From contig OZ024755.1 in assembly GCA_964016885.1 (NCBI GenBank), positions 11,036,001 to 11,100,000 of the forward strand: DNA of 64,000 nt, read 5' to 3'. A program made the translations under genes and the position numbers. The notes under the pieces are model-generated. The model did not search any database. It worked only from the letters and a program-made list of their open reading frames with translations, and had not been told where the DNA came from. Numbering within the stretch: position 1 is the stretch's first letter; every line of letters begins with the position of its first letter. Of this stretch, positions 2,843 to 50,400 are shown piece after piece. The stretch is from Eledone cirrhosa (Eukaryota).

Positions 2843-2882
2843 TGTCTTCTAATGAAGGACTAATGCCCGCAACGTTAAGACA
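2843..2882 (+). ncRNA. Decayed minimal hammerhead in a Penelope-like element end
   Basis: tgtctt-CTAATGA-aggactaatgccc-GCAA-cg-tt-aagaca; stem I tgtctt/aagaca intact, two core substitutions. A related element at ~48130-48275 shares the downstream tail and retains GAAACGTTA. Confidence 0.45.
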
Positions 2883-5800
2883 CTTTTCCTACTATATCAA
2901 GCGTTAAACTAATATATATCTTCATTGTAATGTATCGATTTGCTGTTTTGGTTTCCGTTTACCTTTCTGATATAATTCGTGTGTGTGTGTGTGTGTGTGT
3001 GTGTGTGTGTGTGTGTGTGTGTGTGTGTGTGTGTTATGCATGACCAGTAAAAAAAAAAGAATAAAAGAATATGAAGCTGCATATTATAGTTATTGGACAA
3101 TCAGGACGTACATTGAGTCCAGCATAGATGTTGTATTGTTACTAGTAAGTGTCTCCATTAGTCAATCAAATTATCTGAAGTCTCACAAAGTTTCACACAG
3201 TTTAAATGAGATGCGAACTTACTCGATTTTACTGCAACATTTTATCGTGTGAAGCAATATTAACGAGGAGTAATACACTAACTAAGCAATATACTACTAC
3301 TACTAATCAATCAGTCAATCAAATATCACACATTCACCAATCACCAGTCAGAACCTTTATGATTAAATTGTCCATCTCGTAGCTTTAATGACTTTATCAA
3401 CGCCTTCAATGGTCATCATTTTTAGAAGAATTTAATTGTACAAAGGGCGGCGAATTGGCAGAGATGTTAGAACGTCGTATTGAATGCTTTGCAGTATTCG
3501 TTTCGGCTCTCTGCTCTCCGAGTTCAAATCCCGATGAGGTCAACTTTGCCCTTCACCTATTCAAGATCGAAAACCAAAAGTACCAGTCTAGTATTGGTGG
3601 TCAATTCTTCTTCTATATCTCTTCCAGTCTATCCATTCTCTTCCATTCTCTCCCTCCTCTCACTCTGCATCCTTCTCTGTGAGGCCCCGCTGCTGTGTTG
3701 CACTTTTCGTAAATGTTTTGCATTGGTTTAATGCGGTACAGACAATTAAATGCGCTGATCAGACAAGAACTGATATGGCCATATTTAAAATATTTTTTTC
3801 TCATTTTGAAATTTAATTTTCTTTTTTTTTTCATAATTTTTTGATTTTGTGATATACTACTTCATTGTTTAATTATTTTTTGCTTTAATTATTCGAATAT
3901 TTTAATTATTTTCCTTTATAATATTTTACTTATATTTTATTTATTTATTATATATATATTATGTTTTCACTGAATCCTTACATAGTCAATTAATTATAAC
4001 GATTACTTTTGGTAGTGTTTTTCTTAACATTTTTTGTGGTTTGGGTTGTTCTGGTTGTAGTTGTTGTGACAGTTTATGATTGTTTCATGATGTAGATAAT
4101 CACAGTGCTGATTATTATTGGCGGCGGCGATGATGATGATGATGATGATGATGTTGTTGGTGGTGGCGATGGTGGTGGTACTGATGGTAATGTTTGGTTC
4201 TTGCGGCTATTATTTGCTTTTCTACCAGTGTTATTTTTTGGTTTTAGTTTTCACACATTACAAACTATTTCTTATATGTAGATATATAAGCATGGATATA
4301 CGCACACACACATATATACATACATGCATACATACATAGATATATACATAAATATATATATATGTTTGTATGTGTATTTGCATATATATGTAAGTTTATA
4401 TGCATTTATATATGTCTATATGAATGAAAGCATGTATGTATGTGCATATATAGGTATGCCACACGTAGATCACATACATAGATATACACATATACAGCAC
4501 ACGTACGCCACATATTCACACACATATGTACAACACGCGTGGACCGCACACACATGAAGACACAACAATACAAGGAGGTCACGAGAACCATTTCTAGTCT
4601 GACCACTTCATTAGCTCCACCGAGACTACTTTTATGATACCACAACAATAACATAAAAAACAACAGCAACAACAACAATAGCAATAAGAAATATCCAAGA
4701 TGTCGCTTAAGATAATATAACATAAATAAGACAGTAATTGGTAATCATCAAATATCGATTATATACGATAATTTGCTGAGTATGTGTGGTTGATTGAACA
4801 CATTGAGATTTTCATATGGTGGAGATTGGGTGGGGTGGTTGACACCTCTCCCACATATTATCTTCTTGATGTTCTGACAGTAAAAAAAAATGTTTTTGTC
4901 TTAAAGTCCAATAGGGGCGAGTCTATGTGATCACATGTTCAATAAGAAATGGCTTCCAAGTGTTATTTTCCATTGTCAATACGTCTGGCAAAAGCGTGAC
5001 CGATTTTTTTCTGTTATTTTCTGCGACAGGCGACAGAACAAATACCGCAAAGCATTCCGTCCAGCACTTTAACAATTATTATATTCCACCCTACCCCTAC
5101 CCTGAACTGGTACTTTATTTATTGACCTCGATATTATGGAAAGCAAAGTTTACCTCAGCTGGATTTCAACTTAGAGGGTAGAGAACCAGAATATATACTA
5201 AAGCATTTAATCCGACGCTTTCCCAGCACCAAAATCGCTGACCCTTGCCTAAATTAGAAATCCTTATTATTTTATATAAAATAGGGTGGGTGGTAGCTGG
5301 TGACAGAATTGGTAGACAGTAGGATCAAAGTTATTCCAGTGATGAACATCCCATATTTTTGTTTATATCAAGGACTGTGTACCCACGCAATTCATTAACT
5401 AGGGTGTCAATTATTTTTTTAAAGATCCTTGCAGCATTTTACTAAAACCTTTTGCATTCTGAGTTCAAATCCCTCCGATGTCAACTTTACCTTTTCATCC
5501 TTCCAGTATCGATAAAATAAAGTACCATTCAAATACTGAGAAGAATTTAATCGATGAAGCCCTGCAATCAGAGTTTTAGCTTTCTGCCCATATATCAGAA
5601 TTCATTACAATTCTTTAGAATGAGACATCATTGTAGAGTTCAAAGTATCTTTTCTTGAAAGAAATTCCATTATTTTTACCTTCGGAATTGAGATATCGGT
5701 TTATTTATTTATTTTTGCTTGTTTTTCATTCTTTGTTTCTTGGAATTTTTTGTGGTGGTTCTGTTTTTGTTTTGTTTTTTTTTTGTGTGTGTGGAGGCGA

Positions 5801-47245: not shown

Positions 47246-47410
47246 GGAACCACGCTGGAAAAACAATACATCATTTGTGAGCAGGTTCTCTACTAAAAGA
47301 CGAGACCGTTCTTCACAAGGTTCCAATAATATCCAGTCACCTATGGTACCTCGGCAGTTGAGGAAGGCTTTCACGGCAGGTGACGATGACATATCGGACA
47401 GTTTTAATAG
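47246..47410 (+). CDS. KCNQ: KCNQ exon: helix A-B linker, part 1 (absent from ORF track)
   Basis: gctttacAG|G ... AG|GTgagt, 165 nt, phase 2-2, open frame: (T)EPRWKNNTSFVSRFSTKRRDRSSQGSNNIQSPMVPRQLRKAFTAGDDDISDSFN(R). Joins both neighbouring exons in frame. Confidence 0.85.
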
Positions 47411-50400
47411 GTGAGTTTAAAATGTGATGAGCCACCGTTGGTTCCGATGATGGGTGTTCCAGTTGTTTGATCATCGAAACAACTAACCGGTGTTTTCTAT
47501 GTGTTATATGCAAATGAGCATATGTGTGAGGGGGGGAGAGAGAGTATGTATGTGTGTGTGTGTTTCTGTGTGTGCATAATATATGGAATACCATCAGTTT
47601 AACCGAATTACCGAAAAAGGTATTCATTGCTTAGTGAAGATTTATGACAATATCTCTCAAATACAGGTAGCAGACATTTCCATTACGTTGGCTCCATATA
47701 TATTTATATATATATATATATATATATATATATATATATATATATATATATATATATATATATATATATATATATATATATATACAGATATATAGTTATA
47801 CATCTATCTTACAATGTAATGGAACAAGAACCCATAAATCTATGGATCATATGTATGGCGACACTTTCTCATATTTTAGCCGAGACCTGCAATCGGTGAC
47901 ACCAGACAAAGAAATTTGTGAAAAAAAAAAAAAAAAGGGAAACGAAAAAGGCTGTGATATTTGAGATGCTATAGAATTAGATGTCATTGCAGTGATGATA
48001 ATGTTATCATTGTTGCAACTTTGCAGATACAGATATTAAATTTGCAAACATTTTCTTTTAGGTTTTTTTTTTTCCTTTTCTTACTCATTTATCTTTCTAT
48101 TTCTTCTTCTCTTTATCATTCTATCTATCCCATCCTATGAAGGACTAACAACGGAAACGTTACGTCTCTTTGTCTCTTTTCCTGCTATACCAAGCATTAA
48201 ACTAATATATATTGTCATTGTACTGCATTGTTCTGTAATGTTTTTCTTTGTTGACGTTTCGTCTACACAAATAATTATATATATATATATATATATATAT
48301 ATATATATATATATATAAGGAAAAGAAATCGAAAATGCAACTGGAGTCTTTTTAAGATTATTTATTTATTTCGTTTACTGGTTTCACAGTTCTTATGCTT
48401 TTCAAAAGTAAAATTGAGATGGAGAGTTTGATATATATATATATATATATATATATATATATGTGTGTGTGTGTATATATCCAGTGTGTAGAAATTATGT
48501 AGAAACTATGGAGAAACTTTATTCTTTGGACAATCCTAGCTTAATAAATAAATCGATTAGATACGGAGAGAAATAATCATATAAATGAGAATGTATGATG
48601 ATTTTCATCGGATGAGAGATTTCCGCCATATTTATACTGTTTATATGTTCGTATATATGTGTATATATATGTGTATATATATATATGTATATACATATGT
48701 GAATATGCGTCTTTTTATATATGTACATATGTAAGTACGTATGAATGTATGTATGTATGTACGTATGTATCAATGTATGTATCTATGTGTGTATGTATAT
48801 GATGATTATCCTGTTAGTATATAGGTGAAACTCCAGGGTACACAACACATCACCTAGCTGTAATAAAGTATACATATATATATATATATACGACAAGCTT
48901 CCATACTTGTTCCGTCTACCAAATTCCTCTCATAAAGTATTGATCAACGGGAGGTTATACAAGAAGCTTCGTGACCAAGGTGCCACACTATACACCCGGA
49001 ACCAAATTCTAGTTTATATTTAATATAAATAACCATTGGATTTATATTCTCTTCATAAGTTGAAGAATAAGGAAACTTGTCTCTTGATGAGACCTCAAAT
49101 AGACGTGTAATATGTAAAGACAATGTCTTATGTTCTTCTGTGTACGAACACATAAATATAATATATTCACGTTTATTTCAAAGAAGAGAGGCATATAATT
49201 TAAATTTATAAGTTCACCCACATTAAATTTATCTTATATTACATTATTTCTATATGTTTGTACGTGCATTTTATTATTGCTTGAGGAAGTCATTCATAAC
49301 AAATTTACATATATTTACATTTTTCAATATTATAAACACAATAATTCTGTATGTAGATAATGTAAATACTTACTAAACACACGGTTTTATTGTTTTCAGA
49401 AGCTAATAGGGAGATCGTAAAGTTTTGAATGCACTTTTCGTATGCCAATGAAATGTTAACAGATTAAGCTTGTTATCATTGTCCGCCAAAATGGATGTAT
49501 CAAAGGAAATGTACATTTGGATATATACACAATGTTTATATGCGTGTATGAATGTGCGTGTGTTTGTGTGTGTCTTTTGCGTGTGTGTGTGCAATGTATA
49601 TATATATATATATATATATATAATTATATGTATGTGGGTACATATATATACATATATGTATATATGTGTGTGTGTGTCTTTTGTGTGTGCAATGTATATA
49701 TAAATATGTGTGTGTATATGTATATCTCTGTGTATGCGATGAGTATAGATATAGATATATATATATATATGCCTGTATAAATATATATTTGATGTTTATA
49801 TGTATATATGATTATATACTGTATATATCTAATTATATACTGAGTATATATATATGAGCGTGAGTGTGTGTGTTTGTGTATGTTTGTGTGCTGTTATGTG
49901 TCATGGGTTTACACCAACATGACAAAATAACATCCAAACAACGAATGTTGCTGGCTGAGGTTTTTAAACTTTGACCATATTGAATGATAGAAAGGTACAT
50001 AGGTATACAGACAGAGAGAAAGACAGTGAGAAAGACAGACAGACAAAGGACAGACAAGCAGATAGATATGTACACACATATAAATACATACATACACATA
50101 TACATACCTATAGACACATATATACACACATATAAAACATTGGATGAATATCTTCGTTCTATTTACTGATTGTAGAACCACATCGAACCCGAAAGATCCT
50201 TGGCTTCATCTTTCAAGAGTTTACCCTTGTTACAAATATATATATATATATATATATATATATATGGGTGTGTGTGTGTGTGTGTGTGTGTGTGTGTGTG
50301 TGTGTCCTATAGGTGAGATCCCGGTGTAAATCTGGAAACGACCACTGTCAAAATAGGTGCTCAATATATTAGTAGAGTAAAGGTATATTTATTAAAGAAA

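Follow-up and report, generated by a model that had tools for sequence, protein, structure and literature searches.

Minimal hammerhead motifs of several repeat families in introns of octopus KCNQ

Does a gene whose introns carry hammerhead motifs disarm those lying on its sense strand? The potassium-channel gene KCNQ of Eledone cirrhosa raises this question in the 64,000-nt stretch of contig OZ024755.1 analysed here (the window). The initial annotation had described several hammerhead-bearing families in this gene, with sense copies apparently disarmed, assuming that positions 1-17893 are KCNQ intron. In the window, KCNQ runs from 17893 to 60709 on the + strand, with nine coding exons (~17893-18069, 38882-39009, 41279-41388, 46613-46798, 47246-47410, 54447-54539, 58117-58316, 59003-59099 and 60005-60709). 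By protein-level comparison, the exon at 17893-18069 corresponds to amino acids 160-218 of a 770-aa Octopus KCNQ; amino acids 1-159 have no match anywhere in the window, and the exons 5' of 17893 fall outside it. The assumption is thus borne out at the protein level, and the copies are intronic instead of lying upstream of the KCNQ transcription start, a placement that had been named as refuting the proposal.

Hammerhead layouts in the KCNQ introns

We ran a scored hammerhead descriptor on the window and on eight shuffles, and a separate, looser scan. The descriptor gave five matches scoring at least 10 in the window, four of them at least 11, against a total of two matches of at least 10, and none of at least 11, in the eight shuffled controls. 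The copy at 2843 was picked up by the looser scan only. The layouts described at 2843+, 9151-/9303+/39791-, 14548- and 20647+ are indeed present and exceed the shuffles, and the count of at least four families is right, since the 48135+ remnant and the 2843 copy are sisters (71% identity over 173 nt by blastn). All in all, the KCNQ introns hold minimal type I hammerheads with a palindromic stem III from several families. The Rfam hammerhead models had no match in the window, and nothing from Rfam reached the gathering score. In an E-value scan, the best 150 of 533 matches fell on microsatellites or palindromes and were to models of miRNA precursors or other hairpins, and local Rfam scans gave 3 weak matches in family D and 14 in family C, none of them hammerheads.

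Family C has the complete type I arrangement of CUGANGA, GAAA and UH together with stems I and II. Its hammerhead (14548-14618, - strand, antisense to KCNQ) has an 8-bp stem I, a long stem II and the palindrome ATGCGCAT, and sits in a ~160-nt insert (14517-14675) flanked by TA repeats; as had been noted, it is the only fully canonical core. One core change is present in family B (U4C) and in the window copy of family D (G5A), and the arrangement is absent from the family A copies, which have two or more lesions, and from family F. The predicted homodimer MFE structure is an exact double hammerhead for B (all three copies), C and D, and contains no double hammerhead for A or E. An unpaired base between 9 and 10.1 plus a G10.1-C11.1 pair occur in A copy 1 and D, stem II is closed by U-A in B and A-U in C, and an extra A precedes GAAA in B and D. 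The family consensus was built from reads for D only, and from the window copies alone for A, B, C and E.

Family B is a fold-back insertion at 9114-9388 (both strands), with two 110-bp arms differing at two sites, a one-sided tail to ~9550 that is also found at 30335-30454, and TA repeats outside. Its antisense arm carries a hammerhead at 9151-9199 (-) with a U4C core, a 7-bp stem II and the palindrome ACAATTGT, and its sense arm one at 9303-9351 (+) with the same core and two private stem II changes, so that both arm-to-arm differences strike stem II of the sense arm. A third copy (39734-39912, -, antisense; 82% identical to 9094-9281) is not in a hairpin, with its hammerhead at 39792-39838. 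U4C (CCGAAGA) is found in all three copies, hence on both strands.

Family A lies on the sense strand. Copy 1, a decayed minimal type I hammerhead at 2843-2882 (+) within a repeat copy at ~2814-2967, presents G5A (CTAATGA at 2849), A13C (GCAA in place of GAAA) and a mismatched pair in stem II. Copy 2 (48090-48275, +), which matches copy 1 at 67-71% identity (122 of 181 sites in the alignment), bears out the further decay claimed at 48135: its core there lacks one base and stems I and II are broken, with GAAACGTT retained. At 67-71% identity, the expected probability that both cores are broken is 0.69-0.79. Judged from these two copies, family A is old, ~30% diverged throughout and decayed everywhere.

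Core-like sequences in two further fold-backs had escaped the initial annotation. Family E (14857-15004, both strands) has 71-bp arms of identical sequence, both bearing a weaker, fifth layout resembling a hammerhead (3-bp stem II, U4A in the cores at 14939+ and 14922-) that was found by eye and missed by both scans; its one-sided tail (14766-14856) is common to 9698-9789, 21194-21295 and 61567-61663. Family F (43296-43599, both strands), with arms identical over 113 bp, contains an intact CTGATGA at 43572+ and 43323- with no downstream GAAA, a half-core only, and gave no complete fold as a type II/III hammerhead or twister (by eye and Rfam). Another palindrome, at 12870-13056, has no hammerhead layout.

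Family D, an abundant retrozyme-like repeat

The family D insertion lies in (TA)n at 20224-20894 (+) and comprises a short inverted stub, a partial tandem and one unit. The partial tandem is a 142-nt identical duplicate (20233-20374 = 20753-20894), and the single 520-nt unit (20375-20894) is ORF-less, its longest open frame having 54 codons. The hammerhead (20647-20727, +, sense) has a 5-bp stem I, G5A at 20654, a 6-bp stem II base and the palindrome ACTAATTAGT; among the sense copies its stem I is the best formed, with an in-context pair probability of 0.8-0.9.

We recruited 2049 and 1895 contigs and 6624 reads for this family, leaving out run X4 (a single contig). G was found at 20654 in 1179 of 1204 reads (97.9%) and in 99.98% of the summed contig depth. 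G5A, in at most 2.1% of the reads, is thus specific to the window copy, and CUAAUGA is not the consensus of this family; a CUAAUGA consensus regardless of orientation had also been named as refuting the proposal. Variation affects 22-67% of reads at sites 20675, 20680, 20700 and 20703, and a core kept while its neighbours vary would fit selection acting on the source elements. Outside the identical duplicates, the window copy has 4-5 near-private changes in 373 nt; given its private changes, the chance that one hits the core is 0.08-0.21, and P = 0.02-0.05 for all the near-private changes arising after insertion and sparing the duplicates. A pattern scan found no further family copies in viral contig or genome contig collections; one metagenome match was discarded as a chance 21-nt match inside a bacterial gene.

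A head-to-tail joint (20890->20382) appears in one contig each of two runs from one sample (depths 678 and 434), and these contigs carry a letter that differs from the window copy. Read depth is lower toward the 5' end, and no sequenced piece spans the whole unit. The predicted circular fold of the unit has z = -5.3 against shuffles, and z = -3.8 without the hammerhead. Like animal non-LTR retrozymes (PMC7229834), family D combines a single type I hammerhead in a non-coding unit with head-to-tail joining seen in other copies and a highly paired predicted circle, and its 520 nt fall within the 51-972 bp of Li, Clavereau and Pollet 2026 (10.64898/2026.07.22.740005). It differs in being longer than the 150-450 bp retrozymes of PMC7229834, in its minimal-type ribozyme, and in having 1.27 units with one damaged ribozyme at this locus. 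From its sequence, this abundant ~520-nt ORF-less family would be retrozyme-like, in a cephalopod.

Decay or strand-specific disarming

If intact sense hammerheads cut the pre-mRNA, only copies dead on arrival or damaged later would persist on the sense strand. CTAATGA is read at both 2849 and 20652, as had been claimed; the antisense copies 9151- and 39791- are, however, non-canonical too (CCGAAGA). Likewise, the hairpin pairing 9303+ to its own antisense arm is present, but 9151- is paired in it as well, so this pairing is not sense-specific. Across nine folds in one window, the outcome of Fisher tests shifted with the post hoc scoring, from p = 0.44 for canonical cores (sense 0/5, antisense 1/4), through 0.40 and 0.10 for other scorings, to 0.04 for the most favourable one (damaged folds, sense 4/5, antisense 0/4), which is confounded by age. 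With 0-1 of 4 antisense folds counted as damaged, the range is p = 0.04-0.17, and with old family A excluded it becomes 0.14-0.37.

One could argue for strand-specific selection from family D, where G5A, an inactivating change (PMC4027429), is absent from the consensus and strikes the sense copy with the best-formed stem I; the identical duplicates, set against the near-private changes elsewhere in the copy, fit a donor already bearing it. However, this copy has other private changes, a core strike had a probability of ~0.1-0.2, and a core change is expected in about one in five copies if all core sites varied like 20654. The two private stem II changes in 9303+ point the same way as G5A, but gain nothing, as hairpins block both strands: by comparison with described insertions, a fold-back hairpin of the family B type would silence both strands symmetrically and is documented as a side effect when Penelope elements insert. 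Family B also has U4C cores irrespective of strand, the family A copies are decayed throughout, and the non-hairpin single inserts (3 sense, 2 antisense) make no purge visible. Fast intronic ribozymes do reduce mRNA, the engineered hammerhead T3H48 by 13-20-fold (PMC11856399), and Xenopus introns show a modest deficit of retrozymes (Li, Clavereau and Pollet 2026), in a preprint with no orientation analysis that leaves molluscs and octopus unmentioned. Against this, a single minimal hammerhead showed no detectable cleavage and dimers little (PMC4209133), and slow intronic ribozymes leave splicing unaffected (Fong 2009 as cited in PMC10919898); eight of nine Xenopus hammerhead dimers also showed no cleavage. 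With lone minimal hammerheads reported inactive or slow, little disarming would be needed, and we regard strand-specific selection as unlikely.

Any strand pattern could also stem from generic selection against sense transposable-element sequence, through poly(A) or splice signals. The antisense bias of intronic elements is established in human genes (PMC3517506), where the logic is the same (sense copies harm the host transcript), with termination signals as the agent and genome-wide evidence, in place of self-cleavage and nine folds. Such selection predicts fewer sense copies and not damaged cores, and a common SINE-like repeat in the window has 12 sense and 4 antisense matches (pieces, not independent copies), so we find this very improbable. 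That all these folds arose by chance in DNA rich in AT and hairpins, as the silence of Rfam, the one match of at least 10 in two of eight shuffles and the MFE structures of E and the A remnants might suggest, appears more improbable still, given the four matches of at least 11 that no shuffle equalled, the recurrence within families, the exact dimer folds and the family-wide conservation of G5 in D. Chance is unlikely for B, C and D, and may still account for E. Ordinary decay is the likely source of the damage in sense copies; a single window offers too few copies to demonstrate, or to rule out, selection against self-cleavage of the RNA.

Penelope-like architecture and its meaning

The insertions show near-perfect fold-backs (9114, 14857 and 43296), one-sided tails (B, E and F), and a pLTR-like partial tandem with an inverted 5' stub in D. 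TA runs lie on both sides of C, D and E, near both ends of B and F, on one side only of 39734 and 48090, and are absent at 2814, a weak indication in a TA-rich window. Fold-backs, one-sided tails, partial tandems and TA flanks have been described for Penelope-like elements (PLEs; PMC8557442), and a preference for inserting into microsatellites, (TA)n among them, for Neptune/Naiad. A Pfam search found no RT or GIY-YIG remnant among 149 ORFs of the window (six KCNQ-exon frames of 155 left out), so PLE identity is drawn from architecture alone and the copies are not filed as autonomous PLEs. Cervera and de la Pena 2014 (PMC4209133) describe minimal hammerheads in PLE pseudo-LTRs that share with the window copies the type I layout, a palindromic stem III needing a dimer, a long stem II, in A copy 1 and D the unpaired base before stem II, a genome-wide wealth of unrelated families, mostly as single copies, and pairs on opposite strands 100-700 bp apart. 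Unlike those, the window has no RT/endonuclease ORF, U4C in family B and the extra A before GAAA in B and D. Retrozymes have been proposed to stem from PLEs (Li, Clavereau and Pollet 2026). The motifs probably lie within the 3' ends of short repeats, either Penelope-like retroelements or non-coding, retrozyme-like derivatives of these, their damage likely reflecting family variants and neutral decay and not strand-specific disarming.

Every family combines the boxes of the core with stems I and II and a stem III that is palindromic, and B, C and D are predicted to form double-hammerhead dimers. Under this Penelope-like reading, and going by the literature, such dimers in tandem element RNA would release RNA of unit length as a substrate for Penelope RT/endonuclease; after reverse transcription the copies would be inserted, often at (TA)n, in 5'-truncated, partly tandem or fold-back form. 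In family D, the core is indeed conserved among copies whose neighbouring sites vary. A lone inserted copy with no intact partner of its family nearby, or locked in a fold-back hairpin, would cut KCNQ pre-mRNA rarely or never, and so would be free to decay on either strand.

The presence of self-cleaving motifs in sense orientation within introns, here those of a neural ion-channel gene, recalls the CPEB3 HDV-like ribozyme (PMC10919898) and T3H48; those are fast or conserved monomeric ribozymes, and the window motifs are repeat-borne, damaged and predicted to be dimer-dependent. Our literature search, with the supplements of PMC4209133 outside its scope, found no octopus hammerhead paper and no strand-orientation test of such hammerheads. 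The present results extend a known class, the Penelope/retrozyme hammerheads, to octopus, with one well-supported high-copy ORF-less family. It is conceivable, if doubtful, that octopus introns act as a strand filter, in which thousands of these hammerheads stay intact in antisense and persist in sense only if dead on arrival, mutated or hairpin-locked; the density of 4-5 families per 64 kb suggests ample power in an octopus assembly. Such a filter, if real, would answer from genome statistics alone whether minimal PLE hammerheads cleave in vivo, as population-genetic evidence that ribozymes nearly inactive in vitro do so.

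Hammerhead layouts in the KCNQ introns

The KCNQ potassium-channel gene has nine coding exons on the + strand, reaching 60709 and bordered by AG/GT. Exon 17893-18069 is 100% identical to amino acids 160-218 of O. bimaculoides KCNQ, and in the last exon 7-8 residues differ when it is compared with the proteins of O. bimaculoides, O. sinensis and O. vulgaris. Since residues 1-159 match nowhere in the window and the O. vulgaris and Argonauta proteins likewise extend upstream of exon 17893-18069, positions 1-17892 are most simply read as KCNQ intron, as the initial annotation had assumed for 1-17893. 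Besides, the exon end at 46798 and its donor site have three further copies downstream (46783-47206, 92-93% identity), giving duplicate 5' splice sites.

A descriptor scan of the window found hammerhead layouts at 2843+, 9151-, 9303+ and 14548-. A scored scan returned 14548- (18.9), 9151- (13.6), 39792- (12.1), 20647+ (11.7) and 9303+ (10.1), while eight shuffles gave two matches at ≥10 and none at ≥11. With 48135+, a sister copy of 2843+ (family A), every site of the initial annotation was recovered. Two-copy folding produced a textbook double hammerhead for all three family B copies (9151-, 9303+, 39791-), family C (14548-) and family D (20647+); families A and E gave none. No Rfam hammerhead model matched in window or local scans. 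By eye, a weaker fifth layout with a U4A core (family E) was seen in each of the two identical arms of 14857-15004; family F (43296-43599) carries intact CTGATGA on both strands without downstream GAAA.

In conventional hammerhead numbering, used throughout, B, D and E all seem to deviate from the standard closing of stem II by a 10.1-11.1 pair: the stem is bordered on either side by an unpaired base (C..A, C..A and U..U; A..G in 39791-). In family F (43520-43599, +, and its mirror arm) GAAA lies 26 nt upstream of CTGATGA, an arrangement resembling the 'HHR half core' of some Naiad elements (PMC8557442).

Insertion architecture and neighbouring repeats

Self-BLAST after microsatellite masking detected five near-perfect fold-backs (inverted-repeat hairpins) within the KCNQ introns, with arm lengths of about 23-113 bp: 9114-9388, 12870-13056 (also given as 12870-13190), 14857-15004, 43296-43599 and 61643-61688. 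They are predicted to form long dsRNA in the pre-mRNA, possibly serving as ADAR substrates; the animal is known for its heavy RNA editing. Tails occur on a single side of the fold-backs and recur elsewhere in the window. Family D contains a 142-nt, 100% identical partial tandem (20233/20753), and C, D and E are directly flanked by TA runs on both sides.

Fold-back, tail, tandem and TA-target features are described for Penelope-like element (PLE) insertions by Craig et al. (PMC8557442). Cervera and de la Pena (PMC4209133) report that a genome can contain numerous minimal-hammerhead families without relation to one another, whose members mostly stand alone but in some cases form pairs on opposite strands; monomer cleavage was undetectable and dimer cleavage low. 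Scanning 149 of the 155 frames listed in the window revealed no RT or GIY-YIG remnant, so it is from this architecture that we infer a PLE origin.

Regarding other repeats, the 12870 palindrome has a SINE-like fragment (13054-13170) lodged in its right arm. Direct repeats of 16 nt at 13041 and 13160 bracket this fragment and look like a target-site duplication. Twelve of 16 BLAST pieces of a common tRNA-like repeat, presumably a SINE, between 677 and 55257 are sense to KCNQ, the opposite of the usual antisense bias. Inserted in (TAA)n, 26189-27240 (+) has a 329-codon frame with a weak zf-RVT match (E 2.3e-4) and a 3' end recurring at 62818-62917; it resembles the 3'-terminal part of an R4/Dong-type non-LTR element. 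Degenerate coding-like fragments at 51430-51910 (-) and 57340-57630, without Pfam match, resemble RTE-type LINE pieces.

Core integrity on the two strands

Sense hammerheads had been proposed to be disarmed by selection against self-cutting of the pre-mRNA. This is a good hypothesis that, weighed from the sequence of one window, we consider unlikely. In its favour, G5A abolishes cleavage (PMC4027429), a fast engineered intronic hammerhead lowers mRNA 13-20-fold (PMC11856399), and Xenopus retrozymes are intron-depleted after normalisation, even if 42-44% of them are intronic (Li et al. 2026 preprint). Against strand-specific selection, slow intronic ribozymes had no splicing effect (Fong 2009, as cited in PMC10919898), and no cleavage was seen for 8/9 Xenopus dimers in the same preprint. 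Canonical cores number 0/5 sense and 1/4 antisense (p = 0.44), or 0/3 versus 1/2 among single inserts (p = 0.40); single inserts at the family core are 0/3 versus 2/2 (p = 0.10). Any-damage scorings, chosen post hoc, gave 4/5 sense versus 0/4 antisense (p = 0.04) or 4/5 versus 1/4 (p = 0.17), and p was 0.14-0.37 without the old family A. Both A cores are expected to be broken (probability 0.69-0.79), because the copies are only 67-71% identical.

Family B has a U4C core in both orientations; a viroid variant with U4C retains sufficient in vivo activity (PMC3088659). The reported pairing of 9303+ with its own antisense arm is present, but 9151- is captured equally: stem I probability in context is 0 in both arms because the hairpin captures both. 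Both arm differences fall in stem II of the sense arm, as polarised by 39791-, which favours selection, although with only 3 nt between them the two could reflect a single event. Also in its favour, family D stem I is well formed in context (probability 0.8-0.9).

For family D (20380-20890) we aligned 2049 and 1895 contigs from one sample (X1 and X3) and 6624 reads; run X7 is RAD-seq carrying the same species label, and X4 (one contig) was left out. Position 20654 is G in 103161/103181 depth units (X1; summed depths are not copy numbers) and 1179/1204 reads (X7), and non-core sites nearby vary in 22-67% of reads. Because G dominates in X1 and X7, CUAAUGA (the G5A core) is not the family consensus; had it been, the initial annotation would have counted its idea as refuted. 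Among 40 of the 149 variant rows, copy D has at least four near-private letters (20402, 20483, 20617 and 20654; ≥96% other in X1 and X7) and about 14 minority letters. For a hit in one of the 11 core positions the probability is 0.08-0.14 given 4-5 changes and 0.26-0.34 given 14, or 0.21 assuming 2.1% variation at every core site. The identity of the 142-nt duplicates suggests that these changes were present in the donor before insertion (P = 0.02-0.05 otherwise), provided that the duplication is not a later event.

The family D unit and its relatives

The hammerhead features are real, and the class of element is already known, as is a generic antisense bias of intronic TEs (PMC3517506). In the literature searched, with most subscription papers outside it, we found no report of octopus hammerhead families in main texts (cephalopod motifs may be listed in the PMC4209133 and PMC8557442 supplements) and no strand or orientation test of intronic ribozymes, the Li et al. 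2026 preprint included.

The family D unit is 520 nt with no frame over 54 codons. A joint from 20890 to 20382, one letter unlike the window, occurs at depths of 678 and 434, which indicates that other copies carry a head-to-tail junction. Position 20703 has a C-to-A variant, and the loose-end consensus carries T at the paired position; if they share a molecule, the two suggest a compensatory change in stem II. The circular fold has z = -5.3 (30 shuffles), or -3.8 without the ribozyme (40 shuffles). The unit resembles non-LTR retrozymes, non-coding hammerhead-bearing retroelements (PMC7229834; Li et al. 2026 preprint), but its locus in the window is a monomer. By analogy, family D would work like a non-LTR retrozyme, with a predicted circular RNA.
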